Shown: piece after piece, positions 29,411 to 45,634 of the stretch
Position numbering within the stretch: position 1 is the stretch's first letter
Layout of the letters: every line of letters begins with the position of its first letter
Source: Tagaea sp.
GTDB taxonomy: Bacteria > Pseudomonadota > Alphaproteobacteria > CACIAM-22H2
Direction of reading: 5' to 3'
Assembly: GCA_965279525.1 (NCBI GenBank)
Contig: CBDIIB010000003.1
Coordinates: 160,001-224,000 of the forward strand
Length of the DNA stretch: 64,000 nucleotides
Notes under the pieces: generated by a model
The model's database searches: none
What the model was told of the DNA's origin: nothing
What the model saw: the letters and a program-made list of their open reading frames with translations, nothing else
Position numbers and translations under genes: made by a program

Positions 29411-29511
29411 AATTTTTCCAGTGACTTAGCCGTCATTTGATCCGCGGAAGGTCTCCGAAGACCAATTCGCGTCGGTGTCCAGGATCTCCGGCAAAAAGGC
29501 GACTCGCGTCG

Positions 29512-30531
29512 ATGACTTCAAGCCATTCGGCCATGGCGACCGAGACCGCTGAAATTCCCCGCGTCCTTGCAGAAATCGTCGCGCGGCGTGCGTCGATTGC
29601 CGAACTGGCCGGTCGCATCGACGTGCGGTCGGCGGCGGTTGCCGTGCTATGCGGGCGCGGGAGCTCGGGGCATGCGGCAACGTACCTGCGTTACCTCATC
29701 GAGACGCGTCTGGGAATCCCCGTATCTTCCGCAGCGCCATCCGTTTCGACCGTGTTCGGCGCCAAGCTCAAACTCACCGGCGCGCTGTTCGTCGTCATAT
29801 CGCAGTCCGGGAAAAGCCCGGACCTGGTTGCGGCGACGAAGGCTGCTCGGGCGGGTGGAGCCCAGACGGTCGCAATCGTCAACGAGGCGGAATCGGCCGT
29901 CGCTATGGCGGCCGAACATGTGCTTGCGTTGCAGGCCGGGCGCGAAAGGTCCGTTGCCGCCACGAAATCGGTTGTCGCGTCGATGTTCGCGGGCGCCGAA
30001 CTGGTTGCCGCTCTTGCCGACGATTCCAAGCTCCAGAGCGCGCTCGCCCGGCTGCCGGATCGGACGACGTCGGGATTGCGTCTCGATTGGGGAAGCGTGA
30101 GCGAAGCGCTGCAGAACGCATCTTGTTTATATACGACATCGCGCGGGTTCGGCCTCGGCCCCGTGCGCGAACTCGCTCTCAAATGTGCCGAGACGCTGAG
30201 ATTGCCGGCACTTGCCTACAGTGCGGCGGAACTGCTCCATGGTCCGCGCGCGGCAGTCACGACCGGCACGCCGGTTCTCGCATTGCGCCTGGACGACGCC
30301 AGTGCAAGCGGGATCGATGCGCTAGCGCGCGATCTCGTCGCTTCCAAGGTTCCGCTGTTCCTTGCCGGCGGACCGGCTTCTGGCCTCCCCTGGATCGGCG
30401 ACGATCATCCGGCAACTGACGCGATCGCGATGCTCGCACCTGCGTATCTGATGATCGAGCGGGCGGCCCGAATGATGGGATACGATCCCGATCGTCCGCC
30501 ACATCTGTCGAAAGTGACCGAAACTCTCTGA
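29512..30531 (+). CDS. SIS domain protein (NagB-II/FrlB-like sugar-phosphate deaminase or deglycase)
   Basis: GRGSSGHAA, ISQSGKSPDL, SVAATKS, ELALKCAE, ELLHGP, PPHLSKVTETL. Confidence 0.9.
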   Translation: MTSSHSAMATETAEIPRVLAEIVARRASIAELAGRIDVRSAAVAVLCGRGSSGHAATYLRYLIETRLGIPVSSAAPSVSTVFGAKLKLTGALFVVISQSGKSPDLVAATKAARAGGAQTVAIVNEAESAVAMAAEHVLALQAGRERSVAATKSVVASMFAGAELVAALADDSKLQSALARLPDRTTSGLRLDWGSVSEALQNASCLYTTSRGFGLGPVRELALKCAETLRLPALAYSAAELLHGPRAAVTTGTPVLALRLDDASASGIDALARDLVASKVPLFLAGGPASGLPWIGDDHPATDAIAMLAPAYLMIERAARMMGYDPDRPPHLSKVTETL

Positions 30532-30540
30532 TTCGGCGTT

Positions 30541-31509
30541 TCAGATCGCGGAAGCGTCACGGACGGAAACGGCACCCGCGACCGACCGGACGTCGACCCG
30601 CGCTTCGAGACGGAGGATGGCCGCACGAGTCGGAACGGTACGCGCACCGCCGACATGCGATACCGCGAACGCGCCACAGGCCGTGGCGCGGGCAAGGCAG
30701 GCAGCAGGCGAAGCGCTGTCGATCCACGCGTCGATGAAACCGGCGGCGAACGCGTCGCCAGCACCCGTCGCATCGACGACGTCGACGGCCAGCGCCGTCG
30801 ACGCGAGCTGCCGAGTGCCATCGGACCAGATCGCCCCCTGCCGGCCCCGCTTCAGAACGACCGTCGGCCCGCTCGTCGCGAGCATCTGGAGGAGCGGTTC
30901 GGGCCGGTCGACCGGCAGTCCCGTCAGGGCGGCGGCCTCGGGCGCGTTGGGAATCAGCAGGTCGACGGCTCGCGCCAGCGCCAATGCACCTGGCAGCCGG
31001 ATCGCGGCGTCGTCCCATGCCACGTCGAGCGAGATCGTGATCCCGCATTCGCGCGCAACGTCGATCAGCCACCGGGCATCAAGAAGCGTGGCGAGTTCGG
31101 CGACGTGCAAGTGCCGAACGCCGCCTTGTCGCAGACGATCTGCGAGACTGTCGGGAACCGCCGGACCCGCACGGTGCGTGACGAAGGATCGGTCGTCGCC
31201 GACCGCGAGCGCCACGGTCAGCTGGGGCCCGCCGTCGAAACGCTGGAGCAGCGAAAGCCCGACTCCCGATTTGCGGAGTTGCGGCTCGAGCGTGCACGAG
31301 ACCGGATCGGTTCCGAGCGACGCGGCGAGCTCGACACTCCGGCCAAGGTTGTGAAGGAACGCCGCCGAAATGAGCGCACCGCCGCCGGGCGTCACGACGA
31401 CGGCGTCCGCATAGTGCTCGCGACCGATCTGCGGCATCGCCTTCAGGCCGGTCATCACGATGTCGGCGTAGAGACGGCCGACGCAGACAATGGCACCCTT
31501 CGTTTTCAC
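30541..31509 (-). CDS. PfkB family carbohydrate kinase
   Basis: PGGGALISA, VLKRGRQGA, DATGAGDAFAAGF; GTG overlaps the upstream stop. Confidence 0.92.
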   Translation of the reverse strand: MKTKGAIVCVGRLYADIVMTGLKAMPQIGREHYADAVVVTPGGGALISAAFLHNLGRSVELAASLGTDPVSCTLEPQLRKSGVGLSLLQRFDGGPQLTVALAVGDDRSFVTHRAGPAVPDSLADRLRQGGVRHLHVAELATLLDARWLIDVARECGITISLDVAWDDAAIRLPGALALARAVDLLIPNAPEAAALTGLPVDRPEPLLQMLATSGPTVVLKRGRQGAIWSDGTRQLASTALAVDVVDATGAGDAFAAGFIDAWIDSASPAACLARATACGAFAVSHVGGARTVPTRAAILRLEARVDVRSVAGAVSVRDASAI

Positions 31510-32582
31510 GCAGTCAATCCATGGCGGATCGCGCGCCCGCCAGCCGTCTCGAACAAATGGAGGTTCGCCGGATCGGCACCGAGCATGACGCGGTCGCCCG
31601 GTCGCGGCAGGACACGGTCCGCGCATTTGGCGACGACTTCGTGCGGGCCCATCTGGCCATAGACGAGCGCGTCGTGTCCCAGCGGCTCGACGACCTTCAC
31701 GACCGCTTCGGCGCGGATCGGGGCCGAAGCGCCGCCGGCGAGGACTCGCAGGTCGTCCGGCCGGACGCCCACGGTGAGTTCGCCCGGAACCTGCTCCGGC
31801 GATGCGAGCGACACGAGACCTTCGATCTCGATGCGGCCGGAGACATTTCGGGCCGAAAACATGTTCATCGATGGCGATCCGATGAATCGCGCAACGAACA
31901 TGTCGACCGGCCGCCTGTAGATCTCGTCGGGCGTACCCGTCTGGAGAATCTCGCCGTCCTTCATGATGACGATACGATCGGCGAGCGTCATCGCCTCGAC
32001 CTGATCATGTGTCACAAACACGATCGTACGACCCAGCGTCTGATGGAGCTTCTTGATCTCGAGACGCATCTGCGCGCGAAGCTGCGCATCGAGATTCGAA
32101 AGAGGCTCATCGAACAGGAACACGGCGGGATCACGGACCATCGCACGGCCGATCGCCACGCGCTGGCGCTGGCCACCGGAAAGCTCCGACGGGCGGCGAT
32201 GCATCAGGTCGGTCAGGCCGAGCTTCCCGGCGATGTCTGCGACACGCCGTTCCTTCTCGACCTCCGGCATTTTCCGCGCGCGCAGGCCGAAGCCGATGTT
32301 CTTGGCGACCGTCATGTGCGGATAGATCGCATAGTTCTGGAAGACCATCGCAATGTCGCGGTCCTTCGGTTCGATACGGTTGACGACGCGCCCGCCGATC
32401 GAGATTTCGCCTTCGGTGACATCTTCCAGTCCGGCGATCATGCGCAGCGTCGTCGACTTGCCGCACCCAGATGGCCCGACAAGCACGACGAATTCGCCGC
32501 TGACGACGGAAAGGTCGATGCCCTTGACGGCTTCCACCTTGCCGTAGCGCTTGACCAGTTTCGTTAGGGTGATTTCGGCCAT
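31506..32582 (-). CDS. carbohydrate ABC transporter ATP-binding protein (MalK/UgpC-like)
   Basis: GPSGCGKST, LSGGQRQR, DEPLSNLDA, VTHDQVEAMTL. Confidence 0.96.
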   Translation of the reverse strand: MAEITLTKLVKRYGKVEAVKGIDLSVVSGEFVVLVGPSGCGKSTTLRMIAGLEDVTEGEISIGGRVVNRIEPKDRDIAMVFQNYAIYPHMTVAKNIGFGLRARKMPEVEKERRVADIAGKLGLTDLMHRRPSELSGGQRQRVAIGRAMVRDPAVFLFDEPLSNLDAQLRAQMRLEIKKLHQTLGRTIVFVTHDQVEAMTLADRIVIMKDGEILQTGTPDEIYRRPVDMFVARFIGSPSMNMFSARNVSGRIEIEGLVSLASPEQVPGELTVGVRPDDLRVLAGGASAPIRAEAVVKVVEPLGHDALVYGQMGPHEVVAKCADRVLPRPGDRVMLGADPANLHLFETAGGRAIRHGLTA

Positions 32583-32592
32583 TCGTCTGTTC

Positions 32593-34101
32593 CTATCCAC
32601 GCGCGACAAGTCGGCCAAAGGCCGCGTCGAGTGCTTCTGCCTGGGTGGTCTCGCGCGTAAGTATCTCGGTGGCTTGCCGCGAGAAAGCGGCAGCCTGCGC
32701 GCGATACCCTGCAAGGGCCTCGCGCATCGGTTCGGGCGCCGGACCGCCGGGGAGTGTGCGCACGGCGACGAAATTCGCGGGCGACACCACCGTGCGGAAG
32801 CGCGCCTCGTCGATTTTAGCAGGGCGTCCGGCGGCATGCCGGAACGCCGTGGCGAACGGCGCATAGCCGGCGGCGGCAAGCGATGAGCCGGCGGCGACGA
32901 CGGCGCGCGCTGTCGTGGCGGCGATTTCGTGCGCTTGCCGGAACGACAGGCCTTCCTCGCGTACGACGCTGTCGGCCAATTCGGTGATTGTGGCGCAGCT
33001 GCGGTCAAGATTGGCCGACACGCGCGCGGCGTCGATCCGCACGGCGCGGATCAGGCCCGCCAGAAGGTCGGTGGCGCGACCGGCATCGACGAAGGCGGCA
33101 TGGCAGGCGGCCTGCACTTCGCCCTCGATGTCGTTCATGTCGGTGAAAGGCGTGTTGTGGACGATCGAGACCGCGGTTTCCGCGCGGCCGGCGGCGAGCG
33201 AGGCGAGAAGGCGCGTGTGCTCGATCGGCACGGGATTGCGCTTCTGCGGCATTATCGACGAGATCTGGACGAAGCCGTCGGGGACGTGGAGTTGGCCGAC
33301 CTCGAACCCGGACCAGTACTGGAAATCCTGCACGATGCGGCCAAGATGCAGCATCGAAAGGCGCAGGGCCGAATAGGGCGCGGTGACGTAATCCGCTGCC
33401 GCGATGCAGCCGTAGCTGTTCTGCCGGATGCGCGCGAAGCCGAGCAGTTCGGCCATGCGGCTGCGGTCGAGCGGGAACCCGGTTGTGGTGATGGCACCAG
33501 CTCCCATCGAACTCTGGTCGACGATGGCCCGCGCGGCGACGAGGCGTTCGATGTCGGCGATGAGTATCTCGATATATGCCGACAGATAATGTCCGAACGT
33601 CGTCGGTTGGGCAGGCTGGCCGTGCGTATAGGCGACGACAAGCGTCCCGACCTCGGCTTCCGCTTTGGTGATCGTCGCATCGAGCAGGGCGCGCATCTTG
33701 GCGAGATGCCCGTCGATCCGTTCTTTCAGCACGATCTTGAAGATCGTGTGGTCGATGTCGTTGCGGCTGCGTCCGATATGCAGGCGGCCGGCGACGTCGG
33801 GATCGAGGCGGTCACGCAGAGCATGCTCGATCAGGAAGAACAGGTCCTCGACTTCGCCGGTATAGGGGATCGACTTCAGGTCGAGTGACTTCTCGATGTC
33901 GGCAAGTGCCTTCGCGATGGCGCTTGCTTGCGCATCCGGCAGGATTCCGGTTTCGTGGAGCATGACGCAATGCGCGCGGTCGATGCGGCGGAAGGCGTCA
34001 ACGAACGTGGACTTCGCCCCCTCGAAGAGAGGCGCCAGAACCGTGTCCTTGAAGACGGGAGCGGGGAACCGGTCGTCTGAACCGGCGAGCGGAGCGGACA
34101 T
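32593..34101 (-). CDS. argininosuccinate lyase-like fumarate-releasing lyase
   Basis: HIGRSRND, AYTHGQPAQP, SSIMPQKRNP signature, FRQAH. Confidence 0.9.
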   Translation of the reverse strand: MSAPLAGSDDRFPAPVFKDTVLAPLFEGAKSTFVDAFRRIDRAHCVMLHETGILPDAQASAIAKALADIEKSLDLKSIPYTGEVEDLFFLIEHALRDRLDPDVAGRLHIGRSRNDIDHTIFKIVLKERIDGHLAKMRALLDATITKAEAEVGTLVVAYTHGQPAQPTTFGHYLSAYIEILIADIERLVAARAIVDQSSMGAGAITTTGFPLDRSRMAELLGFARIRQNSYGCIAAADYVTAPYSALRLSMLHLGRIVQDFQYWSGFEVGQLHVPDGFVQISSIMPQKRNPVPIEHTRLLASLAAGRAETAVSIVHNTPFTDMNDIEGEVQAACHAAFVDAGRATDLLAGLIRAVRIDAARVSANLDRSCATITELADSVVREEGLSFRQAHEIAATTARAVVAAGSSLAAAGYAPFATAFRHAAGRPAKIDEARFRTVVSPANFVAVRTLPGGPAPEPMREALAGYRAQAAAFSRQATEILTRETTQAEALDAAFGRLVARG

Positions 34102-34105
34102 CGGA

Positions 34106-34954
34106 TTATCCTTTCAGCCCGGCGAGGACGACGCCGCGGATGATGTAGCGCTGGAAGATCAGGAAGATGAGAAGCGTGGGGATCGTCGCGAGGCTGGCGC
34201 CGGTCATGATCAGTTCCCAGTCGATCTGCTGTTCGACCGAAAACGTCGTGAGGCCGACCGGGAGCGTGTAGAGCTTCGGCGACGTCGTCACGATCAGCGG
34301 CCAGAGAAAGGCCGTCCAGTTACCGAGGAAGACGAAGATCGCGAGGGCGGAAAGCGCCGGCGTCACGAGCGGCATCGCGATCGTCCACCAGATCGCGAAC
34401 TCGCCCTGGCCATCAATGCGAGCGGCGTCGAGGAAATCGTCGGGGACGGTCTCGAAGAACTGCTTCATCAGGAACGTGCCGAAGGCTGTCATGATGCCTG
34501 GAAACATGATGCCCCATGTCGTGTCGAGCCAGCCGAACGTGGCCGACATCATGTACCAGGGGATCACGAGCATTTCGGTCGGGATCATCAGCGTCGACAG
34601 GATCGCGAGAAAAACGAGATAGCGGCCGCGGAAGTGGAACTTCGCCAGCGTGTAGCCGACGAGACTGTCGAAGAAGACGTTCGACAGCGTCACGACGGTG
34701 GCGATGAAGAGCGAGTTCAGGAACCACCGGGCGAAGCGTCCGTCCTTCAGGACGTGAACATAGTTCTCCAGCGTGGGTTCGCGCGGGATGAGCGTGAGTT
34801 GGTAGACCTCGTGCGGATGCTTGAACGACGTCATCAGCATGTAGAAGACGGGCGTGACCATCAGGACGCCGCCGATTGCCAGAAGCGTCCATGCGATGAT
34901 GCGGCCGGGGCGAAGGTCGGCGAGATGGGCCGGTAGCTGCGGCACGCTGGCCAT
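34106..34954 (-). CDS. carbohydrate ABC transporter permease
   Basis: DAARIDG (EAA loop), WTAFLWPL. Confidence 0.95.
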   Translation of the reverse strand: MASVPQLPAHLADLRPGRIIAWTLLAIGGVLMVTPVFYMLMTSFKHPHEVYQLTLIPREPTLENYVHVLKDGRFARWFLNSLFIATVVTLSNVFFDSLVGYTLAKFHFRGRYLVFLAILSTLMIPTEMLVIPWYMMSATFGWLDTTWGIMFPGIMTAFGTFLMKQFFETVPDDFLDAARIDGQGEFAIWWTIAMPLVTPALSALAIFVFLGNWTAFLWPLIVTTSPKLYTLPVGLTTFSVEQQIDWELIMTGASLATIPTLLIFLIFQRYIIRGVVLAGLKG

Positions 34955-34956
34955 GG

Positions 34957-35850
34957 TCAGCGGTCCTTCATGATGCGGAGCTGGAGCAGGGAGATGGCGA
35001 GCAGTACGACGAACAGAACGACGGTCTGCGCGGCTGCATATCCGAGTTCGTAGGAGCGGAACGCGGTCTGGTAGATCAGCAGCACGAGCGGCTTGGTCGA
35101 ATCCAGCGGACCACCGGGATCGTTCGTCGTCATGTTGTAGACTTGGTCAAAGATTCGCAGGTATCCGATCGACGAGAACACGACGAGGAAGATTACGGTC
35201 GGCCGCATCAGCGGGATCGTGATCTCGCGCAGGATTGTCCAGTCCGACACGCCGTCCATGCGCGCGGCCTCGTAGTAGCTGGTCGGGATCGCGCGCAGGC
35301 CGGCCATGAAGATGATCACCTGGAAGCCGAGCCCGTGCCAGATCGCGGTTGCGAGAATCGACGGCAACGCGTTCGTCGTCGAGGCGAGGAACGCGATCTG
35401 CGGCAGGCCGAGACTGGAGATCGCATTGTTGATCACGCCGATCGGGACGGGTTGGTAGAACCAGCGCCAGACCCATGCCATTGCGGCGGCCGTCGTCAGG
35501 AACGGCAGGAAGTAGAGTGCCCGGATGAGCCCTTGCATGAACCGCACGCGGTCCAGCTGGTAGGCGACGAGGAAAGACAGCACGATCGACAGCGGCGTGC
35601 CGACAATGAGGTAGATGAACGTGTTCGCGAAGACCTTCCAGAATACGGGGTCGTTCGCGAGGCGGACATAATTGTCGAAGCCAACCCAGCGTTGCTCACC
35701 GATCAGACGCCAGGAATGCAGGGAGACGTAGAAGGATTCGAGCGTGGGATAGAAGCGGACGAGGACATAGAACGCGAGCGGAACCGCAAGGAACGTCCAA
35801 GCCCAGACAACCCGCTTCTGTTCGATCGTTCTGTTCGCGTACCAACTCAT
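34957..35850 (-). CDS. carbohydrate ABC transporter permease
   Basis: YEAARMDG, GGPLDST, GYAAA. Confidence 0.95.
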   Translation of the reverse strand: MSWYANRTIEQKRVVWAWTFLAVPLAFYVLVRFYPTLESFYVSLHSWRLIGEQRWVGFDNYVRLANDPVFWKVFANTFIYLIVGTPLSIVLSFLVAYQLDRVRFMQGLIRALYFLPFLTTAAAMAWVWRWFYQPVPIGVINNAISSLGLPQIAFLASTTNALPSILATAIWHGLGFQVIIFMAGLRAIPTSYYEAARMDGVSDWTILREITIPLMRPTVIFLVVFSSIGYLRIFDQVYNMTTNDPGGPLDSTKPLVLLIYQTAFRSYELGYAAAQTVVLFVVLLAISLLQLRIMKDR

Positions 35851-35862
35851 TGCTGACTGGAA

Positions 35863-35890
35863 TGGCCCCGCGGACCGGTCCGCGGGGCCA
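35863..35890. repeat. perfect 28-bp palindrome downstream of the binding-protein gene (probable mRNA stem-loop)
   Basis: TGGCCCCGCGGACCGGTCCGCGGGGCCA. Confidence 0.75.
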
Positions 35891-35896
35891 CCTCCG

Positions 35897-37153
35897 TCAC
35901 TTCTTGTAGAAGCCGTCGAGCAGTTTCTGCTCGGCTTCCGCCATGATCTTCAGCGACACCGCCGGATCCTGGTTCTCGAGAAGGATGCGGCTGACCGCAT
36001 CCATCACCATCTGGCGCTGGGCGGACTCGTCGACGAAACGCGTGGCGTGCGCTTCCTTGAGGCCGGCTACGAACGGGCCGTAGATCGGACTTTCGGTCGC
36101 AGCTTTCGAATTGGCGGCCGCTTCGCGCGCCGGCAGCTCGCCGGTGACGTCGAGCCAGTGCTGCATCGCATCCGGCGTCGTCACGAAGGCGAGGAACTTC
36201 GTCGCGGCGTCGAGTTTGGTGCCCTTCGAGGAAGCCGTGATGCCGTTCACCCAATAAGAACCGTAGTTCGAACGGATTCCGTTATGGCTGGGCAGCGGAG
36301 CGACGACCCACTCGAGGCCCCGGGTACGCTCGAGCGCGCCGATGCGGAAGTTGCCGTCGACCATCAGGCCGGCGCGCTGGGCGCGGAAGGCCGCCTGCGG
36401 CTCGTCCATGAATCCGCGCGCGGTGACCTTGTGGGTGCGGAAGAGATCGACATACCAGGTCAGCGCCTTCAGGCCGGCCTCGGAATTGTACGTGACCTGC
36501 CTGCCGTCGGCCGAATAGGGCGTGCCGCCGAACTGTCGCACGAGCACTTCGCGCCACCAATGCTGGTCCTGCCATTCCACGCCGGCGCCGATGCCGACCT
36601 GCGTGATGTTGCCCGAGGCGTCGCGCTTGGTCATCTTCTTGGCCGCGTCGAGGAGGGCGTCGAGCGTCGCCGGCGGCTTCGCGGGGTCGAGGCCGGCTTC
36701 CTTCATCAGGCGCGTATTGTAGAAGACCGACAGCGACCGTACCGCGGTCGGCAGCGCAAAGTACGCGCCGTCGCGTTTCATTTCGCGGATCATCGGGAAA
36801 AATTCGGATTCGATCTTCGCAGCCGGGAAGGCAGCCGCGGGCAGCGGCTGCAGGATCTTGCTCGCGTGAAAATCGTCGAGCCATCCGTAGAAGAGCTGAA
36901 CCACGTCCGGGCCCTGGCCGGCGGCCATCGCAGCCGAGACCTTCGTGCGGTAGTCGTTGTAGGGAAAATTGACGTGCTTGACCTTGATTGCGGGGTTGGC
37001 GGCCTCGAACCGCTTGATCAGTTCGTCCATCGCGCGAACGCGCGTCTCGAAGGTGTACTGCCAGTACTCGATCTCGACGGGCTGGGCCTTGGCCCCGCCT
37101 GCGAGGCCGACGGCGAGCAGCGCTGCCGCGGCAAGGCTCTTCAGAATCCGCAT
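35897..37153 (-). CDS. sugar ABC transporter extracellular solute-binding protein
   Basis: signal peptide; AGQGPDVVQL, VFYNTRLMKEAGLDP. Confidence 0.93.
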   Translation of the reverse strand: MRILKSLAAAALLAVGLAGGAKAQPVEIEYWQYTFETRVRAMDELIKRFEAANPAIKVKHVNFPYNDYRTKVSAAMAAGQGPDVVQLFYGWLDDFHASKILQPLPAAAFPAAKIESEFFPMIREMKRDGAYFALPTAVRSLSVFYNTRLMKEAGLDPAKPPATLDALLDAAKKMTKRDASGNITQVGIGAGVEWQDQHWWREVLVRQFGGTPYSADGRQVTYNSEAGLKALTWYVDLFRTHKVTARGFMDEPQAAFRAQRAGLMVDGNFRIGALERTRGLEWVVAPLPSHNGIRSNYGSYWVNGITASSKGTKLDAATKFLAFVTTPDAMQHWLDVTGELPAREAAANSKAATESPIYGPFVAGLKEAHATRFVDESAQRQMVMDAVSRILLENQDPAVSLKIMAEAEQKLLDGFYKK

Positions 37154-37302
37154 CCTGATCTCCCTCGTGTTATGCCGGGCGGTTCACGTTGCGCGCCGCG
37201 GCGAATGCCAATGAATTCGCGATTATGAAGCGCATGGGGCCATCGGCAAGTCAATAACCCAAATCTGTTGAATTAATCGAAGGGGCTCCCTAGGCTTGTC
37301 GC

Positions 37303-38460
37303 ATGCGCGATATGCCTTCCAATGTCTACGACACGCGCGAACACAACCGGCGCGTTGTCCTGCAGGCACTTCGCCGGTACGGAACGCTCAGTCGGCCCGA
37401 TCTTGCGCGCCTCACCGGTCTGTCGGCGCAAGGTGTCACGAATATTGCCGACGAATTGCTGCGTGATCGCCTCGTTCGCAACGCCGGGCGGCGTCGCGGC
37501 GGCCGCGGCCAGCCGCCACTCGATCTGGCCATCGATCCGGCCGGTGGCGCCACGATCGGCGTCGAACTGCGGCATGACGCGATGGTCGTGGTGCTGGCCG
37601 ACCTCCAAGGCGTAGCGCTGCGCCAGAAGACGGTACCATTGCCTTCCGCCGATCCGCAGACTGTCGCGCGTGCGCTCCCCAAGGCGATCGGCAGCTTCTT
37701 GGCGCTCGCGGCGTCCAAGGCAGCCGGTCCGATCATCGGCATCGGAATCGTGGCGCCTTGGCCGACTAGAGGCGCATCGGGCGCGCGCCGCAGCACCGAG
37801 CTTCCGGGCTGGGACCACCTTGCGGATCCGAGCGCCTTCCTGACCGGGGCGCTCGGCTACGACGTCGTGATCGAGAACGATGCCGCCGCCGCTGCCCTCG
37901 GCGAGCACCTGATGGGAGCCGGCCGTAGGTATTCGCGCGTGGCCTGCCTCTACATGGGGCGGGGTCTCGGTCTCGGCCTTGTGCTTGACGGGCGCCTCTA
38001 TCGCGGCGCGACCGGGAACGCGGGCGAGATCGGCCATGTCGTCGTCGAGCCTGGCGGGAGGCCATGTTTCTGCGGCCAGCGTGGCTGCCTCGAACGCTAT
38101 GTGTCGCTTGAAGCCGCACTCGCCGATCTCGGCGTGCCGGCACTCGACGCGAAAGTCGATGCGAGCCTGCTGGGGCGCTGGCTCGATGGCGCCGCAATCC
38201 GGCTCGCGGATGCTGTCGTCATGATCGAGAACCTGTTCGATCCCGACACGATCCTCATCGCCGGACTTTCCCTGCAACTGGTCGAGGGGATCGTCGCGCG
38301 GCTTGGCCGCCTGCCGGCATCGTTGGCACCGCGACCCGGTCCGCGTGTCCTGCAGGGCGAGTGCGGACCCTATAGTGCGGCACGCGGAGCTGCATCGTTG
38401 CCACTCTACGGCCGTGAAGCGCCGCATCTGGCGACCCGGGCTGCGATGTCACGCGCATGA
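37303..38460 (+). CDS. ROK family transcriptional regulator
   Basis: HTH SRPDLARLTGLS, IENDAAAAALGE, AGEIGH, CFCGQRGCLE. Confidence 0.93.
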   Translation: MRDMPSNVYDTREHNRRVVLQALRRYGTLSRPDLARLTGLSAQGVTNIADELLRDRLVRNAGRRRGGRGQPPLDLAIDPAGGATIGVELRHDAMVVVLADLQGVALRQKTVPLPSADPQTVARALPKAIGSFLALAASKAAGPIIGIGIVAPWPTRGASGARRSTELPGWDHLADPSAFLTGALGYDVVIENDAAAAALGEHLMGAGRRYSRVACLYMGRGLGLGLVLDGRLYRGATGNAGEIGHVVVEPGGRPCFCGQRGCLERYVSLEAALADLGVPALDAKVDASLLGRWLDGAAIRLADAVVMIENLFDPDTILIAGLSLQLVEGIVARLGRLPASLAPRPGPRVLQGECGPYSAARGAASLPLYGREAPHLATRAAMSRA

Positions 38461-40265
38461 ACGGTGACGCGTTGCGGCTGGAAGCCGAGGCGGCCGCGGA
38501 TCGTACCTGGGGGCTGGAACTTGCGCTTCGCGGATTGACGGGCACGCTGTCGCTCCTGCAGGTCGGCGCGCATCCGGACGATGAATCCAGCAGGCTGATC
38601 GCGACTCTTGTTCGTCGGCACGCAATGACGGTCGGCTATGCTTGCGCGACGCGCGGTGAAGGCGGGCAGAATGCGCTAGGACCGGAACGCGGGGCTGCCC
38701 TCGGCGCTCTTCGGACCGACGAGATGGAAGCCGCAGCAGCACGGCTCGGAATTTCCATGCACTGGCTTGCGGAACTTGGCGACGAAGCGCTGTGCGATTT
38801 CGGGTTTTCGAAGAGTGCGGAAGATACGCTGCGCCGTTGGGGGCATGCTTTTGCGCTGGAACGGCTCGTGCGCTGCATCCGGCTGATGCAGCCGGACATC
38901 CTGTGCACGACCTTCCGCGACGTCGATGGCCAGCACGGGCATCACCGTGCGATTTCGCGACTTACGGCGGAAGCGTTCGGAATTTCGGGCGATGTCGCTG
39001 CGTTTCCCGAACATGCCGCCGAAGGTATCGGGGCATGGAAACCGTCGCTCCTGTACGAACCAGCCTGGTCGGGTGCCGACGGAACTTACGACGATATGGC
39101 GCCGCCGTCAGGACACGTCCAAGTCGACGTTGGCGAGTGCGATCCGGCAAACGGCGTTCCATACGCGCGAATCGGCGAGTGGTCGCGCGTCTGCCACCGC
39201 ACGCAGGAAATGGGACAGTGGGTCGAGGCGGGGCCGCGCGCCGTTTCGCTCAGGCTCGTCGCGCGCAACGACGGCGGCATCGTCGTCGCCGACCGGCTCG
39301 GCCAATCGCTGCCGGCCACGCTGCGCGAATTGGCGGTGACGACAGGTATTCCGGAACTTGGAAGGGTGCAGGACGCGATCGAGGTCGCGCGTGCCGAGAT
39401 GCCGGATCGGGCGGCGGTAATCCGCCATCTCGAAGCTGCGCGACGCATCCTCGGGACGATCCGGATCACCGAACCGCTTGCCGATCCGCTGAAGCGCAAG
39501 GACGCGCAGATACAGGATGCGATCCGTCTTGCGGTGGATCATGCTGGCCGATGTCCGCCTCATCCGGTCCGAATTCCAGCGCCGGCCGTCAGGCGCGACG
39601 TGCGACCGGATGATGTCATCCGCCCCGATGGCGCGCGCATTGCCTATCTGGGCGGCGGGCTCGATACGGTCGGCGACTGGATCGCCGCATTGGGGATCGA
39701 CAGGGTCGATCTGCAGAATTTCGATCCGGCGGTATTCGCGCGTGGGGGGTTCACGACCGCGCTCGTCGGTATCCGCGCGTTCGAGCGGCGCGACGACCTT
39801 CGGGCGAATGTCGAAGCGCTGCATGATTTCGTCCACGCGGGCGGCCATCTCGTGACGTTGTACCATCGCGCCGGAAAGGGCTGGATGCCGGAACGCATGC
39901 CACCCGCCCGCATCGAGATCGGTTCGCCGAGCATCCGCTGGCGCGCCTGCGATCCGGAAGCGCAGGTTGAGATAGTCGTTCCCAATCATCCGTTGATGGA
40001 AATTCCCAACCGGATCGGACCGGCGGATTGGAATGGTTGGCGACGGGAGCGCGGCCTCTATTTTGCGAGCGCCTGGGATCCGGCCTATGTGCCGCTGCTG
40101 CGCGTGACCGATCCGGGCGAAGAACGGCATCTCGGAAGCCTGCTTTCCGGCCGCTTCGGGAAGGGAAGACACACGCACGTTGCACTTGCCCTCCATAACG
40201 AGATCGAGTTCGGCACACCCGGTGCGTTGCGCCTGATGTGCAACATCGTCTCGCCGCCGGACTGA
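38457..40265 (+). CDS. PIG-L/LmbE family deacetylase/amidase with a C-terminal extra domain
   Basis: AHPDDE, TRGEGGQN, DFGFSKS, QHGHHRA, H.TQ.MG; C-terminal GGHLVTLYH, W..ERGLYF. Confidence 0.88.
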   Translation: MNGDALRLEAEAAADRTWGLELALRGLTGTLSLLQVGAHPDDESSRLIATLVRRHAMTVGYACATRGEGGQNALGPERGAALGALRTDEMEAAAARLGISMHWLAELGDEALCDFGFSKSAEDTLRRWGHAFALERLVRCIRLMQPDILCTTFRDVDGQHGHHRAISRLTAEAFGISGDVAAFPEHAAEGIGAWKPSLLYEPAWSGADGTYDDMAPPSGHVQVDVGECDPANGVPYARIGEWSRVCHRTQEMGQWVEAGPRAVSLRLVARNDGGIVVADRLGQSLPATLRELAVTTGIPELGRVQDAIEVARAEMPDRAAVIRHLEAARRILGTIRITEPLADPLKRKDAQIQDAIRLAVDHAGRCPPHPVRIPAPAVRRDVRPDDVIRPDGARIAYLGGGLDTVGDWIAALGIDRVDLQNFDPAVFARGGFTTALVGIRAFERRDDLRANVEALHDFVHAGGHLVTLYHRAGKGWMPERMPPARIEIGSPSIRWRACDPEAQVEIVVPNHPLMEIPNRIGPADWNGWRRERGLYFASAWDPAYVPLLRVTDPGEERHLGSLLSGRFGKGRHTHVALALHNEIEFGTPGALRLMCNIVSPPD

Positions 40266-40350
40266 GCTCGAACGCCTGTTTCAGGTTCCTGTAGACGTCA
40301 ACGGCCCGGCGGACGCGCCGGCTGATATCTTCCAAGGCGGCGGTATCGAT

Positions 40351-40560
40351 TATTTTGCAATATGCGCGCCTCAATCTCCGTCCAACGTTGATCAAGCGAC
40401 GCTGCTGCGCTCCTTCGATCAAATAGATCCAAATTGCCTGCTCGGAGTTTCGAAAAGGCACAATTCAACTATTGGCGCTATCGCCCCGAATGCTATCGGG
40501 TTCTCGCCGCCAAGCGCAAAGCACCTGAGACACGTGACGTAGAAGTTTCCGATCCAGCCG
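40351..40560 (+). repeat. 210-bp degenerate direct repeat, copy 2 (contains an IS3 3' remnant on the - strand)
   Basis: offset exactly 11650 bp from 28701-28910; - strand reads WIGNFYVTCLRCFALGGENPIAF. Confidence 0.85.
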
Positions 40561-41284
40561 CTGGAATGCCTCGCTGCTGTATTGTCTGCCGCGATTTGCG
40601 CCGCCAGATGAGCCTCGACCTTCGCGCACGCCACGCGAAGCTGGAGCAGGGTACGGCGAAGTCAGTCGGCAATATTCCAAAGGAATCCCTTAGTGCAACT
40701 GCGATGCTGTAGTCGTTATCGATCTTATGCGAAGCGAGATGCCAAAAATTTCCGTCAAGCATCTCCGTCCAAGATCCACTACGTGGCCCGGTATGGAACC
40801 GATCTACTCGATCGGTCACCTGAGCCCACCCTATCCCCGTCGCTTTGGCGAACGCTTCCCTTAGAGTCCAGATGCGATAGAACTCTTCGAGCCCATATTG
40901 GAAGACGGCGGCTCGCTCCTGGGGCCCGAACGCCACTGCTGTAAGAGCGGAAACATCGCGCGGCTTGTGCCTTTCGATGTCGATACCCAGTGCGCCATGC
41001 CCGCACACGGCCGCCGCTGCGAACGATTTGGAATGTGCCAGTGAGATTGAAGGGCCAATCTCGCCGTCTGGGGCAATGAGATGTGGTTTGCCGCGCCGGT
41101 CTTTCGCGATCCGGAAACGGGATATTTCGCCAATTCCAGCAACAAGGAAGTGAGTCAATGCCCGTGCAAGCAACGATGCCGGTCGGTCGCCTGAAGCCAT
41201 AAGATCGGCCGGTCCGGCCCACTTCCGAACGAAAGTTGGTGCATCCGGATCGTCCAGTCGCATCGACGCAAAGCTCAAATCCAC
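40493..41284 (-). CDS. Sfp-type 4'-phosphopantetheinyl transferase
   Basis: GKPHL, SLAHS, LGIDIE, WTLREAFAKATG. Confidence 0.88.
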   Translation of the reverse strand: MDLSFASMRLDDPDAPTFVRKWAGPADLMASGDRPASLLARALTHFLVAGIGEISRFRIAKDRRGKPHLIAPDGEIGPSISLAHSKSFAAAAVCGHGALGIDIERHKPRDVSALTAVAFGPQERAAVFQYGLEEFYRIWTLREAFAKATGIGWAQVTDRVDRFHTGPRSGSWTEMLDGNFWHLASHKIDNDYSIAVALRDSFGILPTDFAVPCSSFAWRARRSRLIWRRKSRQTIQQRGIPAAGSETSTSRVSGALRLAARTR

Positions 41285-41404
41285 GGCTGCAACCTGATGG
41301 GATTTAGACTTGTTCTTTAGTTATGTTATGTTGTGCGTGGCTATAGCGCTATTGAATTCAAAAAAGTATGCTGAAGTTCTACCAAATTTCATTGGAGGGG
41401 TAAG

Positions 41405-41815
41405 TTGGTGGGGGTATTGGCAAAGCGGATCCTGCTGGTCTGCGTGCTGGGGATATCCGTCGCGGCATGCAGGCAACCTCAGCCGATCAACAATGTAAAT
41501 AATCACGCGATTCCGGGCATGGCGCAGCAGAAACTGACGGAAGAGAAGATTGGGGAACTGATTGTTCGGGCCGCCGTTGCAACCGATTGGAGTATTGAGC
41601 CGATCGGCGTCGGACGCTACCGAATCACAACTCGCTGGCGTGAGTTCAGCGCCGTCTCTGAGATCGCCTATACGCGCCAGAGTTACAGCATCCAGCTCGA
41701 TCATTCACGGAATCTCAAAGAAAAGAACGGAATGATCCACCCTCGATACAATCAAAAAATACAGACGCTCACGGTCGAGATTGATCGGCAGCTGACCCTT
41801 GCCGCCCTAAATTGA
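41405..41815 (+). CDS. lipoprotein at the head of the aryl polyene cluster
   Basis: lipobox ISVAAC; C-terminal IHPRYNQ. Confidence 0.7.
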   Translation: MVGVLAKRILLVCVLGISVAACRQPQPINNVNNHAIPGMAQQKLTEEKIGELIVRAAVATDWSIEPIGVGRYRITTRWREFSAVSEIAYTRQSYSIQLDHSRNLKEKNGMIHPRYNQKIQTLTVEIDRQLTLAALN

Positions 41816-42507
41816 GTGCGATGGTGCATCTTACTTTCCGCATAAAGGGCTGGGCCGGTTGGACGCCGAATGGCGGGGAATGCGGCATGTCCGATGCGTC
41901 GACGATGCCGTCGATGCTGCGCAGGCGAGTCGGGTCGCTCGGGCAGTCGGCGCTGCGCGCCGCTTGGGGCTTGCGCGGCGCCGAGAAGTCGCGACTTGTC
42001 TTCTCGTCCCGCCACGGTGAATTCGCACGCACGACGAAGATCATGGAGGCTCTGGCCCGGCACGAAGAAGTATCGCCGGCCGATTTCAGCCTATCGGTCC
42101 ATCACGCGCTCGCCGGCCTGCTGTCCATCGCGACGGCCAACGGCAGGGGACACAGCGCCGTCGCCGCCTGCCGCGACAGTTTCTGCAACGCGTTTCTCGA
42201 GGCCGTGGCGAGTCTGGCCGAAGCGCCGTCGGAGGACGTCACGCTCGTCTACTACGACGAGCCGTTGCCCGCTCCGTTTGCCGACTTCGGCGCGTCCGAC
42301 GAGGAGCATCTTGTACTGGCGCTGCTGCTGTCGGCCGCGGACGGCTCGCCCATGCGCATGACGATGCACGCGTGCAAGGTCGATGACGTGCCGACGGCGC
42401 GGCCCGCCGAAGCATTCCTGGCGTTCCTGCGGGAGGATCGCGCCAGCTGCGAGACCTTCGGCGCGCGACAGGTCTGGCGGTGGGAACGGTCCGATGTTCC
42501 GCATTGA
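41812..42507 (+). CDS. apeC: beta-ketoacyl synthase chain-length factor
   Basis: PSMLRRR, FSSRHGE, SPADFSLSVH, DEPLP. Confidence 0.88.
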   Translation: MSAMVHLTFRIKGWAGWTPNGGECGMSDASTMPSMLRRRVGSLGQSALRAAWGLRGAEKSRLVFSSRHGEFARTTKIMEALARHEEVSPADFSLSVHHALAGLLSIATANGRGHSAVAACRDSFCNAFLEAVASLAEAPSEDVTLVYYDEPLPAPFADFGASDEEHLVLALLLSAADGSPMRMTMHACKVDDVPTARPAEAFLAFLREDRASCETFGARQVWRWERSDVPH

Positions 42508-43255
42508 TTTCGGCTGGCGGCTCGTGGCGACCGGGGCGGCGTTCGCGTTCATCTTCGGCGGCGGCGGCCTGCTGGCAGTCACGGTGCTGCCGCTTCTCGC
42601 GCTGCTGCCGCACCGCTCGCATGAGCGCACGCAGTTCATCATCCACCGGATATTCCGGTTCTATGTCGGCATGCTGCAGGCGTCGGGCCTAATACGGCTC
42701 GTCCTCAAGGGCGCCGACCGGCTGCAGATGGCCGGTGGCCGGATCGTGATCGCCAACCATCCAACGTTGCTGGACGTCGTCCTGCTGATTTCGCTGATCC
42801 CGCGTGCCCAGTGCATAGTCAAGAGCGTGCTCCTGCTGCATCCGTTGCTCGGACCGCTGATGCGGCGGGCCGGCTATATCCCCAATGATCTCGGTGCCGA
42901 CGAGATGGTGGCGGCCTGCACGGCGTCCTTGCGGGCGGGTGAATGCCTCATCATATTTCCGGAAGGAACGCGCACCGAACCCGGAAGTCTGCCCCGATTC
43001 CGCAGGGGGTTCGCGAACCTTGCCATCCTCACGCAGGCGACGATCCAGCCGGTGGTGATCACGTGCGTTCCTCCGACCTTGATCAAAGGCGAGCCGTGGT
43101 GGCGTATACCGCCACGGCAGCCCGCCTTCCAGCTCGTGGTAGAAGAGTGCATGGAAGCGAGCAGCTACATGAGTTATGGATATCGCGGTCTTGCGGCGCG
43201 AAAATTGGTGGGACAGCTTCAGAAATTCTATGCCGAGAAACTGGTCAATGCCTGA
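42494..43255 (+). CDS. apeD: lysophospholipid (1-acylglycerol-3-phosphate) acyltransferase
   Basis: ANHPTLLD, FPEGTRT. Confidence 0.92.
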   Translation: MFRIDFGWRLVATGAAFAFIFGGGGLLAVTVLPLLALLPHRSHERTQFIIHRIFRFYVGMLQASGLIRLVLKGADRLQMAGGRIVIANHPTLLDVVLLISLIPRAQCIVKSVLLLHPLLGPLMRRAGYIPNDLGADEMVAACTASLRAGECLIIFPEGTRTEPGSLPRFRRGFANLAILTQATIQPVVITCVPPTLIKGEPWWRIPPRQPAFQLVVEECMEASSYMSYGYRGLAARKLVGQLQKFYAEKLVNA

Positions 43256-43511
43256 TCTGGAAATCGAGATAAAGGAGCTGATCGTCGAGTGCCTGGCGCT
43301 TGAGGACGTTTCGGCCAGCGACATCGACAGCGACGAGGCTTTGTTCGGGGCGACCGGATTGGGGCTGGACTCGATCGACGCGCTGGAGCTTGGTGTCGCG
43401 CTGCGCAAGCGCTTCGGGATCAAGATCGACAAAGTCGACGAAGAGGTAAAGCTGCATTTCGCGACTGTGCGAAGCTTGGCGCGCTTCATCGCGACTCAGA
43501 GGGGGGCGTGA
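43248..43511 (+). CDS. apeE: acyl carrier protein
   Basis: GLDSIDALEL. Confidence 0.93.
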   Translation: MPDLEIEIKELIVECLALEDVSASDIDSDEALFGATGLGLDSIDALELGVALRKRFGIKIDKVDEEVKLHFATVRSLARFIATQRGA

Positions 43512-43774
43512 TGCTGTCGAAAGACGAAGTATTCGACAAGTTGATCGGCTACTTCGAGGAACTGTTCGAGATTCCACGCGAAAAGATCGCAATGGAATCT
43601 CGGCTTTACGAGGATCTCGATCTCGACAGCATCGATGCAGTCGATCTTGTCGTGAAACTGCAGGAGCTGACCAACCGGCGCATCAAGCCCGAAGCGTTCA
43701 AGAGCGTCCGAACCGTCGCCGACGTGGTCAAATGCATCGAAGAGCTTCTGGCGGATGACACGACCGCGCGTTGA
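43508..43774 (+). CDS. apeF: acyl carrier protein
   Basis: DLDSIDAVDL, FKSVRTV. Confidence 0.93.
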   Translation: MMLSKDEVFDKLIGYFEELFEIPREKIAMESRLYEDLDLDSIDAVDLVVKLQELTNRRIKPEAFKSVRTVADVVKCIEELLADDTTAR

Positions 43775-44324
43775 TTCCTGGCTGGTTGTGGCGGGTCTGG
43801 GAGGGATCGTCTATCCGCCGTTGGTGTATTTCGGTCTGACGTCGGTTCCGCCTCTTGTGGTCGTGGCGTTCGCCCTGTGTCTGCTGCTCCTCCGCCTGCT
43901 TTGTGCGCGGCGCTTGGCCGATGCCGGCCGCTGGTCGGTTGCTTTCGCCGTCGCCATCGCCGTGCTGCTCGGGTTATTGTTCGTTTCGCCGGAGCTCGCC
44001 GTGAAGGCCTATCCGGTCCTGGTGAGCCTCGCGGTTGCGGCCGTCTTCGGCATGTCGCTGATCGCGCCGCCGAGCGCCATCGAGCGCATCGCGCGCCTGC
44101 GAGAGCCGCAACTGCCGCCCGAAGGTATTGCCTATACCCGTGCATTGACCGGGGTCTGGACGGCATTCCTGCTCGGCAACGCGGCCGTCTCCGCCGCGAC
44201 CAGCGTGTGGGGATCTCTGGATGTCTGGACGTTGTGGAACGGACTGCTCGCCTACGTCGCTATGGGACTTCTGTTTGTTGGCGAGATCGCTTACCGCAGT
44301 TACGTACGCCGTCCCGCGTCATGA
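43755..44324 (+). CDS. apeG: COG4648 membrane protein
   Basis: YPVLVS, IERIARL, YTRALT.VW, WTLWNG. Confidence 0.85.
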   Translation: MTRPRVDSWLVVAGLGGIVYPPLVYFGLTSVPPLVVVAFALCLLLLRLLCARRLADAGRWSVAFAVAIAVLLGLLFVSPELAVKAYPVLVSLAVAAVFGMSLIAPPSAIERIARLREPQLPPEGIAYTRALTGVWTAFLLGNAAVSAATSVWGSLDVWTLWNGLLAYVAMGLLFVGEIAYRSYVRRPAS

Positions 44325-45634
44325 AATTCCAGACGCTTTCCGGGTTGCTTGCAGAGGGTAGGTCAGCCCCGCATCCAGTCGCGTTCCGGAATGGAACGAC
44401 TGTAGATTTTTCGAGATTCCGACACGATGTCGCGATCGCGGCTGGCCGCCTGACGGGCTGCCGGAGTGGTGCATTGCTCGGCGACGATAGCTATGCGTTT
44501 GCCGTCGGCCTGTTCGGACTTTTGCAGGCTGGTGCCCGGGTCGTATTGCCGCCGAATGGGAATCCGGGCACGCTCTCGGTGCTTGCGGGCAGTTTCGAAC
44601 GCGTCGTCGATGAAGGGATACTTGCACCGGGCGAGCCAGCCGATCTCCGCAAGCTCGATCCCGGCAATGCGCGCATCGATTTTTTCACCTCGGGCTCCAC
44701 CGGAACACCCAAGCGCGTCGAGAAGGATCTGCGCGGCATCGAGGCGGAGTTGGCAACTCTCGACGGGGTGCTCGGAAATCTGCCGGCCGCTGGCCCCGTG
44801 ATGGCGACCGTTCCGCATCACCATGTCTATGGCCTGACCTTCAAGATATTGCTGTCGCTGGCGACCGGCCGGCCGTTCAGTTCCGAGATGCAGGAATTCT
44901 GGGAAAGCGTCCTGCCGGCACTGACCGCGACGACGGTGCTAGTGACGAGTCCGGCCCATCTCGCACGGCTGGACGGGCTGCCGGCCATCGCCGCAGACGC
45001 CCATCCGGCAATCGTCCTGACGGCCGGAGCGCCGTTGTCGCTTGGGGCCGCCCGCGACAGCCTGCGCCTGCTGGGTAGCCTCCCTTTCGAGATATTCGGC
45101 ACGACGGAAACCGGTGCCATCGCCACGCGCCGCCAGTCTGCCGAAGGCACGCCCTGGCTTCCGATGCCCGGCGTGGAAATTCGCCTTGATGCCGAATCGT
45201 GCCTGCAGGTGCGTTCGGCGCATGTCGGGCCGCGATGGATCGCGATGGCCGACCGTGTCGAACTGCAGGCAGACGGATTCCATTTCCTGGAGCGCGCGGA
45301 TCGCGTGGTCAAGATCGAAGGCAAGCGCGTGAGTCTGGCCGAGGTCGAGAATACATTGCGGGAATTGCCGTGGATCGCGGACGCCGCCGCAACGATGCTG
45401 CCGGGGAAGATCGTACAGCTCGCCGCTGCGATCGTGTTGAACCGGCAAGGGACGTCGCAGTTGCAGGAGATCGGCGCCTTCCGTTTGGGCCGGCAGTTGC
45501 GCAGGACGCTGGCCGAATTCCGGGAGCCTGCCTGCCTGCCCAAGCGCTGGCGCTTCGTCGATGCATTGCCGCTCCAGGCGATGGGAAAGCGTCGCGACGC
45601 TGACATCCGCGCCTTGTTCGGGGAGCGTACATGA
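44321..45634 (+). CDS. apeH: AMP-binding acyl-ACP synthetase
   Basis: TSGSTGTPK, HHVYGL, FGTTETG, KIEGKRVSL. Confidence 0.9.
   Translation: MKFQTLSGLLAEGRSAPHPVAFRNGTTVDFSRFRHDVAIAAGRLTGCRSGALLGDDSYAFAVGLFGLLQAGARVVLPPNGNPGTLSVLAGSFERVVDEGILAPGEPADLRKLDPGNARIDFFTSGSTGTPKRVEKDLRGIEAELATLDGVLGNLPAAGPVMATVPHHHVYGLTFKILLSLATGRPFSSEMQEFWESVLPALTATTVLVTSPAHLARLDGLPAIAADAHPAIVLTAGAPLSLGAARDSLRLLGSLPFEIFGTTETGAIATRRQSAEGTPWLPMPGVEIRLDAESCLQVRSAHVGPRWIAMADRVELQADGFHFLERADRVVKIEGKRVSLAEVENTLRELPWIADAAATMLPGKIVQLAAAIVLNRQGTSQLQEIGAFRLGRQLRRTLAEFREPACLPKRWRFVDALPLQAMGKRRDADIRALFGERT

Follow-up and report, generated by a model that had tools for sequence, protein, structure and literature searches.

The window analysed here is a 64,000-nucleotide stretch of a Tagaea sp. 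genome (Alphaproteobacteria; assembly GCA_965279525.1, contig CBDIIB010000003.1, forward-strand positions 160,001 to 224,000), and its positions 29,512–40,265 hold a carbohydrate-import gene cluster, hereafter the module, with a gene of the argininosuccinate lyase (ASL) superfamily among the transport genes. Open reading frame (ORF) listing and profile scans place the genes for a solute-binding protein, two permeases, the lyase, the ATPase of an ATP-binding cassette (ABC) importer and a PfkB-family kinase in one dense minus-strand operon, in which 4 nt separate permease 2 from the lyase and 10 nt the lyase from the ATPase (Table 1). A plus-strand SIS-family gene converges with the PfkB gene, leaving 9 bp between the two stop codons. 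On the other side, the plus-strand gene of a ROK-family regulator diverges from the operon across a 149-bp spacer and overlaps the following PIG-L gene by 4 nt. Families were called with Pfam and NCBIfam profiles, and together with the ORF listing they agree throughout with the gene coordinates and families given in an earlier, sequence-only reading of this DNA. The lyase motifs quoted there, HIGRSRNDIDHT and ISSIMPQKRNP, are present in the translation, and no gene of the arginine pathway was found among the 19 ORFs scanned at about 25.9–45.6 kb, the remaining window not having been scanned for arg genes.

Two gene starts were adjusted. The SIS ORF opens at 29437 and its profile match begins only at residue 31, so that the ATG at 29512 is the likely start. 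The Pfam match of the kinase begins at residue 46 of an ORF opening at 31626, from which we infer a true start near 31509, where the gene would overlap the ATPase stop codon.

Table 1 Features of the module in the Tagaea window
Feature	Position	Strand	Evidence
SIS protein, NagB-II-like, putative glucosamine-6-phosphate deaminase/isomerase	29512–30531	+	Pfam SIS; NagB-II is the best model
PfkB-family sugar kinase, last gene of the operon	30541–31509 (ORF to 31626)	-	Pfam PfkB, 139.6 bits
ABC ATPase, UgpC/MalK (CUT1) type	31506–32582	-	NF008653 UgpC; ABC_tran and TOBE
ASL-superfamily lyase (P0001), 502 aa	32593–34101	-	Lyase_1 and ASL_C2
ABC permease 2, UgpE/MalG-like	34106–34954	-	BPD_transp_1; UgpE-like, 139 bits
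ABC permease 1, UgpA/MalF-like	34957–35850	-	BPD_transp_1
Periplasmic solute-binding protein, family 1	35897–37153	-	SBP_bac_1 and SBP_bac_8; signal peptide
Divergent intergenic region, 149 bp, presumed promoter/operator	37154–37302	.	Between binding-protein and ROK genes
ROK-family transcription regulator, NagC/Mlc-like	37303–38460	+	ROK domain and N-terminal MarR-type helix-turn-helix
PIG-L/LmbE-type zinc deacetylase or amidase (P0002), 602 aa, with ThuA-like C-terminal domain	38457–40265	+	PIG-L, residues 34–173

The lyase contains the PF00206 (Lyase_1, 132.5 bits) and PF14698 (ASL_C2, 36.3 bits) domains, and its score of 284.2 bits against the TIGR00838 argH model lies narrowly above the cut-off of 279.5. 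Two far better argH genes are nevertheless encoded elsewhere in the host assembly (4.35 Mb, 5 contigs, 97% complete, with the window on contig 3), at 598415–599773 of contig 5 (564.8 bits) and at 1204856–1206214 of contig 4 (510.4 bits), and the lyase is thus a third copy. We aligned the lyase and 116 family sequences with 21 canonical ArgH proteins from this genome and its relatives. Identity to the canonical proteins is 29–35%, and to the two of the same genome 30–32%, whereas the 120 family members among the matches listed are 61–99% identical to the window lyase (4 of these 120 were excluded from the alignment by a length filter of 480–520 aa). Because of the two better genes and this low identity, the lyase is, judged by its sequence, a divergent ASL-superfamily paralogue and not the housekeeping ArgH of the cell. 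The sequence-only reading had pointed the same way, and the possibility that it had named as fatal to its view, that the lyase is the only argH of the genome, is disposed of by the copies on the other contigs. As a side observation, the contig-4 argH lies inside a long open frame, and just downstream of it is an ABC-ATPase-like stretch that shares 40% identity with the window ATPase over 177 residues.

The positions that the lyase family shares with canonical ArgH and those at which it departs from it fall into distinct sets. Common to both groups, and at least 90% conserved, are R111-S-R-N-D115, T159, H160, S281, S282, K287, N289 and E294. According to two ASL studies (PMC2779060, PMC7601404), H162, E296, T161 and K289, together with three conserved motifs, form the fumarate-side and catalytic machinery of that enzyme. 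The catalytic set of the lyase is intact, and the protein retains the machinery for succinyl binding and proton abstraction in a pocket that is otherwise rebuilt. Seven ArgH residues are swapped in the lyase family (Q to I116, V to D117, A to H118, Y to D321, K to N323, Q to E326 and K to Q330), each at least 90% conserved in the 117 family sequences and at least 80% in the 21 canonical ArgH. The conserved ArgH residues directly after RSRND (Q/V/A in the canonical proteins of this genome and its relatives) and in the Y-N-K-D-L-Q-E-D-K helix are accordingly not kept. Further differences, each fixed within its group, are H/M/N to F88/F89/L90 and L to G161. Several of the replaced positions presumably face the arginine moiety of the substrate in ASL.

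The gene also lacks the marks of a role in arginine synthesis, a housekeeping copy in an arg context: it is a third copy, is patchily distributed and has no arg gene among the 19 ORFs scanned around it. Its nearest solved relatives are the Thermus thermophilus ASL (2E9F, 188.7 bits) and ethylenediamine disuccinate (EDDS) lyase (about 155–158 bits). RefSeq names the orthologues argH, a label that is very probably wrong; it is carried by hundreds of database entries and feeds false arginine-synthesis calls into metabolic models.

Conservation of the module was followed in a scan with one genome per species, which returned 118 relatives, and the best 80 loci were retained. Linkage was counted by tblastn of nine window proteins against these 80 loci, with the loci that have enough flank as denominators. 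The binding protein and each of the permeases lie beside the lyase in 77 of 78 loci, the ATPase in 75 of 77, the ROK regulator in 70 of 75 and the PfkB kinase in 67 of 75. The lyase is always found between the permease and ATPase genes and is the most constant non-transport gene of the module. Gene order and orientation are constant throughout, with the exception of L012 (a metagenome-assembled genome (MAG) labelled Solibacteraceae, lyase 78% identical), whose neighbours are unrelated and share no gene context with the module. As the same order recurs in nearly all 80 loci, the arrangement is not due to chance, and the linkage of the lyase with a sugar ABC system, PfkB and ROK, on whose conservation elsewhere the sequence-only reading had staked its case, is kept. 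The constant core consists of the importer and the lyase, to which a PfkB kinase and a NagC/Mlc-like ROK repressor are almost always added. The loci without PfkB (L025, L039, L051, L068, L076 and L086) hold unrelated genes in their flanks and give no further clue.

Carriers among the 80 loci are Tagaea, Microvirga, Bosea, Chelativorans, Devosia, Paracoccus, Rhodophyticola, Alterinioella and several MAGs; the module thus spans several alphaproteobacterial orders and includes marine Rhodobacterales, and the nearest kin of the window (88–93% identity) are from Tagaea. Within the genus, 5 of 12 further genomes carry the family, and so do 6 of 300 other, evenly sampled alphaproteobacterial genomes (E ≤ 1e-100). 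It is often borne on plasmids or secondary replicons (Aminobacter, Loktanella, Rhizobium, Shinella and Thalassospira), and 17 plasmid records carry it at 60–80% identity. The module is accessory, compact and horizontally mobile. Two genus relatives, G313 and G306, have a paralogous permease–permease–lyase–ATPase module (L112 and L113; lyase 55% and permease 67% identical), which in G313 stands together with an orthologous copy, a sign that the family may have branched out towards related substrates.

The transport genes encode a CUT1-type importer, with a family-1 binding protein, two MalF/G-type permeases and a MalK/UgpC-type ATPase that has ABC_tran and TOBE domains and scores 475 bits against NF008653 UgpC (cut-off 432). 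The N-terminus of the binding protein, MRILKSLAAAALLAVGLAGGAKA, reads as a signal peptide, and the nearest solved relatives of this protein are generic sugar binders that score at most 86 bits. The ROK protein combines a MarR_2 helix-turn-helix (residues 19–65) with a ROK domain (residues 85–366) and reaches about 118 bits with both the Mlc and the NagC model. Sugar kinases have a DxGxT-type phosphate-binding motif; at that site the window protein reads IGVELRHD, and the CxCGxxGCxE zinc motif is kept. By these motifs, the protein has the make-up of a NagC/Mlc-type repressor. The 149-bp divergent region contains one sigma-70-like site (minus strand, 37249–37222), which is within chance expectation, and no inverted repeat or operator palindrome was found in it.

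For the SIS protein of the window, the best model is NF046059 NagB-II, which aligns at positions 2–330 of 330 and gives 249.1 bits against a cut-off of 430; the protein also resembles the NagB-II structure PDB 8EOL (160 bits). The SIS protein of Bosea, encoded directly after PfkB on the same strand, comes closer to the same model with 335.7 bits, and a deaminase of this NagB-II type is the only enzyme ever added downstream within the operon. The window SIS gene is the only NagB-II-like gene of the host genome, a GlmS-like match aside. Neither NagA (best match 25.6 bits) nor a PF01182 member, that is, NagB-I or a 6-phosphogluconolactonase, was found in this 97% complete genome, which leaves the window SIS as the host's only candidate glucosamine-6-phosphate deaminase, and the PIG-L protein could provide deacetylation at the unphosphorylated stage. 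In these three respects, the NagB-II likeness, the closer NagB-II in the Bosea operon and the host without NagA and NagB-I, the amino-sugar end of the pathway envisaged in the sequence-only reading gains support. The kinship with the Frl/Fra Amadori systems that it had also pointed to turned out to be weak: the kinase scores 51.9 bits with the FrlD model NF007321 (cut-off 247), and the SIS protein 30.3 bits with the FrlB model NF008481 (cut-off 430). No NCBIfam equivalog reaches its cut-off with the kinase, for which ribokinase-like models are best at about 89 bits.

The PIG-L domain (PF02585, 72.2 bits) occupies residues 34–173 of the divergently encoded P0002. Across 20 orthologues, its metal-binding and catalytic motifs, AHPDDE (A38–E43) and HGHH (H160, H162 and H163), show conservation of at least 90%. 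Enzymes of this family act on N-acyl-glucosamine compounds. None of the equivalog cut-offs is reached (Mca, 46.9 against 277.15 bits; BshB1, 31.5 against 182.5; MshB, 28.3 against 224.35). In an AlphaFold model (predicted local distance difference test score 81.9), a helical linker joins two domains, which Foldseek likens to LnmX, MshB, diacetylchitobiose deacetylase and BC1534 at the N-terminal end and to the ThuA-like structure 1T0B and to 2GK3 at the C-terminal end. Most orthologues are about 800 aa long and have an additional beta-rich middle domain of about 200 aa that is absent from the window copy; in one atlas cluster, 13% of the entries bear the annotation of an NPCBM-associated family. 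The C-terminal domain has several invariant Arg, Trp and His residues in the 20 orthologues, and no conserved cysteine was seen in their alignment, which makes an amidotransferase activity of this domain unlikely. Two side observations concern the PIG-L gene elsewhere. In Devosia algicola (L041:4128-5531) it encodes 467 aa and stops within the middle domain, without the ThuA-like part, and may be truncated or frameshifted. In 32 Microvirga loci (for example L014:2179-3093) and on the Aminobacter plasmid pUSP1 (L087:1061-1882), it is followed on the same strand by a DMT/EamA-family transporter gene, which may encode an exporter of a pathway product or be a coincidental neighbour.

We suggest that the module is a catabolic route for an imported conjugate of an amino sugar with a 2-substituted succinate, which would be O-linked if malyl and N-linked if of aspartyl type; this is a tentative proposal, which we hold at slightly less than an even chance. 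The gene content and its tight packing, the conserved linkage, the intact catalytic set of the lyase and its distance from ArgH, and the NagB-II affinity of the SIS gene are observations; that the substrate is of this class, that the steps run in the order given below, that fumarate is released and that the kinase acts on glucosamine is what we infer. The conjugate would be taken up by the CUT1-type importer, and the PIG-L enzyme, where present, would first free the nitrogen of the glucosamine from its acyl group, either acetyl or aminoacyl. The lyase would then eliminate the substituent as fumarate, by the beta-elimination usual in its superfamily, and so free glucosamine or a close amino sugar. 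This sugar would be phosphorylated by the PfkB kinase, and the NagB-II-type SIS enzyme would convert the amino-sugar 6-phosphate into fructose-6-phosphate and ammonia, with the ROK protein acting as a sugar-responsive repressor.

The best substrate that we can name, and this is a guess, is bacillithiol with its fragments (Cys-glucosamine-malate, N-acetylglucosamine-malate and glucosamine-malate). To our knowledge, the glucosamine-malate core of this thiol is the only natural malyl O-glycoside. PIG-L proteins serve both in the biosynthesis of bacillithiol and in its detoxifying reactions, and bacillithiol is found in soil and marine phyla. The module would then serve to scavenge bacillithiol in bacteria that do not make it: the PIG-L enzyme would take cysteine or acetate off the glucosamine nitrogen, the lyase would beta-eliminate the malyl O-glycoside, converting glucosamine-malate into glucosamine and fumarate, and a PfkB glucosamine kinase and NagB-II would follow. 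In this specific form we consider the proposal unlikely. The alternative linkage, an N-(1,2-dicarboxyethyl) amine, corresponds to ordinary ASL and EDDS lyase chemistry, with Amadori and Heyns adducts of aspartate as natural examples. Since EDDS lyase adds many primary amines to fumarate, as described in PMC12363623 and PMC8317194, N-substituted aspartates with varied substituents would be within reach of the ASL fold.

Several observations weigh against an amino-sugar–succinyl conjugate as the substrate. The lyase is nearest to the C–N-cleaving ASL clade, which is not known to break the C–O bond of a malyl glycoside. The solved relatives of the binding protein bind neutral oligosaccharides, the kinase fits no known glucosamine kinase model, its best matches being weak and ribokinase-like, and the SIS proteins of both the window and Bosea stay below the NagB-II cut-off. 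The accessory enzymes are also inconstant. The PIG-L gene is present in about 50 of the 80 loci, namely 44 and another 5 by ORF clustering and the 467-aa Devosia form (the tblastn count of 44 of 73 is an undercount, because the insert of about 200 aa splits the alignment), and its product has no match anywhere in the 4 of 4 Bosea genomes searched. The SIS gene adjoins the cluster in just 24 of the 80 loci. Of these, 22 are Bosea-type and have it behind PfkB in the same orientation, and the other 2 (L007 and L008) have it convergent as in the window; only the window, L007 and L008 have PIG-L and SIS together. The two genes are accessory and largely alternate, contrary to the sequence-only reading, which had treated both as fixed parts of one pathway, and because they are not constant a single linear four-enzyme pathway is too simple. 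Nor was a complementary distribution of NagA and PIG-L seen, as Microvirga and Devosia have both and NagA-like matches occur in Bosea.

Other explanations were weighed on the same evidence. Catabolism of N-glycated aspartate, with an Amadori (fructose-aspartate) or Heyns (2-deoxy-2-aspartyl-glucose) compound as substrate, would have the lyase cut the C–N bond to give fumarate and fructosamine or glucosamine, for phosphorylation by PfkB and deamination by the SIS enzyme. Its importer, kinase and two-domain SIS families are those of frlBONMD-frlP of Bacillus subtilis (PMC12632257). C–N cleavage of an N-substituted aspartate is moreover ordinary chemistry for the ASL clade, given the range of amines reported for EDDS lyase in the two papers cited above, and the Bosea operon, which comprises transporter, lyase, PfkB and NagB-II without PIG-L, fits well. 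We nevertheless judge this explanation improbable, because the FrlD and FrlB scores are far below their cut-offs and PIG-L, frequent as it is among the loci, is left with no role. Known Amadori and Heyns routes free the amino acid by an SIS deglycase alone, so that a lyase would be superfluous, and such compounds come from plants or food, which does not fit the occurrence of the module in marine Rhodobacterales. A succinylated riboside (succinyladenosine or succinylaminoimidazolecarboxamide riboside), from which the lyase would free the nucleoside for a PfkB-type nucleoside or ribose kinase, would account for the ribokinase and ribose-1-phosphate kinase models being the best, if weak, matches of the kinase, and a distant Bacillus paralogue of PRK06705 type adjoins a nucleoside hydrolase gene. 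That paralogue is only 33% identical to the window lyase, however, and with neither the in-operon NagB-II of Bosea nor PIG-L finding a role and a NagC/Mlc-like ROK protein as the regulator, a riboside substrate is very improbable.

The module may alternatively import an ordinary amino-sugar oligosaccharide (of chitosan or glucosamine type, or another glycoside), the lyase having a side role on a co-metabolite or on a non-succinyl aglycone. The generic oligosaccharide binders among the relatives of the binding protein favour this, PIG-L, kinase and SIS enzyme suffice for the archaeal route from chitobiose to fructose-6-phosphate, and the flanking genes offer no further clue. It is hard to reconcile with the constancy of the lyase, around which PIG-L, PfkB and SIS come and go, with the permease–permease–lyase–ATPase order retained in the paralogous copy of a genus relative, and with the lack of a glycoside hydrolase in the module at any locus examined; we rate it as quite unlikely. 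That the lyase is after all a true argininosuccinate lyase, a third ArgH that came to lie in a sugar operon by chance, could appeal to the narrowly passed TIGR00838 cut-off, to the argH label in RefSeq and to the presence of all catalytic residues. The two far better argH genes, 30–32% identical to it, the systematic swap of ArgH-conserved positions, the place inside a sugar ABC operon kept in at least 75 loci and the patchy, often plasmid-borne spread leave this with hardly any probability. Whatever the substrate, it would add a new specificity to the ASL/fumarase superfamily and probably also a new nutrient route for amino-sugar conjugates. Were it derived from bacillithiol, the module would show natural recycling of a major bacterial thiol, would give low-molecular-weight thiols of this type their first catabolic route and would break a glycosidic bond in a new way, from the aglycone side. 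With culturable soil and marine carriers such as Bosea, Microvirga, Aminobacter, Paracoccus and Devosia, the substrate should be findable with standard assays.

Beyond the PIG-L gene, window positions 40493–45634 encode a 4′-phosphopantetheinyl transferase (40493–41284, minus strand), an acyltransferase (42383–43255) and an AMP-binding enzyme (43877–45634), which resemble a small cluster for acyl activation or of lipid type and seem to have nothing to do with the module. The G+C content is 0.56–0.61 in most of the first 22 kb of the window (0.636 in the first 2 kb) and 0.61–0.67 from there on, with a dip to 0.572 at 40001–42000, just beyond the PIG-L gene; these shifts may mark a compositional boundary or island edges.

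Searches aimed at this gene set or at the substrate ideas, made in the full text of PMC and bioRxiv only, turned up no description of it, in line with the sequence-only reading, whose author knew of no described pathway. Two candidates for the same system were rejected. The Sinorhizobium meliloti cluster Smb21216–21221 has two enzyme genes set among its ABC transport genes for glucosamine/galactosamine. In PMC4961836, a role with galactosamine is predicted. The lyase matches on pSymB are only 28% identical, and the best Sinorhizobium PfkB (32%) lies in a differently arranged cluster. The other candidate was the PRK06705-type paralogue of Bacillus, represented in Bacillus sp. N5-665 by an 'argininosuccinate lyase' (L088:7947-9473) that scores 1119.7 bits with NF005218. 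It was set aside at 33% identity and with a PanF-like symporter and a nucleoside hydrolase beside it; the same-strand run at L088:4145-10373 comprises the PanF-like sodium symporter, the RihC-like nucleoside hydrolase and two proteins without a family match. This lyase looks like another non-arginine ASL paralogue.

With ArgH, the window lyase shares the Lyase_1 and ASL_C2 fold, the three motifs and the catalytic set of Ser loop, Lys, His and Glu; it differs in being a dispensable third copy within a sugar ABC operon and in the replacement of ArgH-conserved positions. EDDS lyase of Chelativorans sp. BNC1 (PDB 6G3D), the second-best solved relative, has HIGRSRND and GHYL-type motifs in common with the lyase family and, as the two papers cited above describe, acts on N-(1,2-dicarboxyethyl)-amines in both directions, cleavage and formation, with a variety of amine parts. 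It lacks the T–H dyad, however (YTQRK against YTHGQ in the window lyase), and serves the degradation of aminopolycarboxylates rather than a sugar operon.

The B. subtilis frlBONMD-frlP and Salmonella fra operons have a CUT1 importer, PfkB and a two-domain SIS protein as building blocks in common with the module (PMC12632257), but they contain neither a lyase nor PIG-L, and the window SIS protein is of NagB-II type. The bacillithiol and mycothiol enzymes BshB1, Bca/BshB2, MshB and Mca have the zinc-deacetylase fold and metal motif of P0002, Mca being its best NCBIfam model, and are without both its ThuA-like C-terminal domain and the beta-rich middle domain of most orthologues. In the archaeal chitobiose route (Dac, a sugar kinase and GlmD), PIG-L deacetylation precedes phosphorylation, and the kinase and an SIS deaminase follow. 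The PIG-L model resembles diacetylchitobiose deacetylase and the SIS protein NagB-II, whereas the module has no glucosaminidase, has a lyase at its core and has a PfkB rather than an ADP-dependent kinase; the GlmD model gives just 36.5 bits, for the Bosea SIS protein. With the FrlD, FrlB, BshB, Mca, MshB and GlmD models all far below their cut-offs, the module belongs to neither the Frl nor the archaeal system. The enzyme families are known, and the specificity of the lyase and the pathway are new; by analogy, the module resembles a hybrid of a Frl-type operon and the archaeal PIG-L, kinase and SIS route, in which the ASL-fold lyase would be the defining step.

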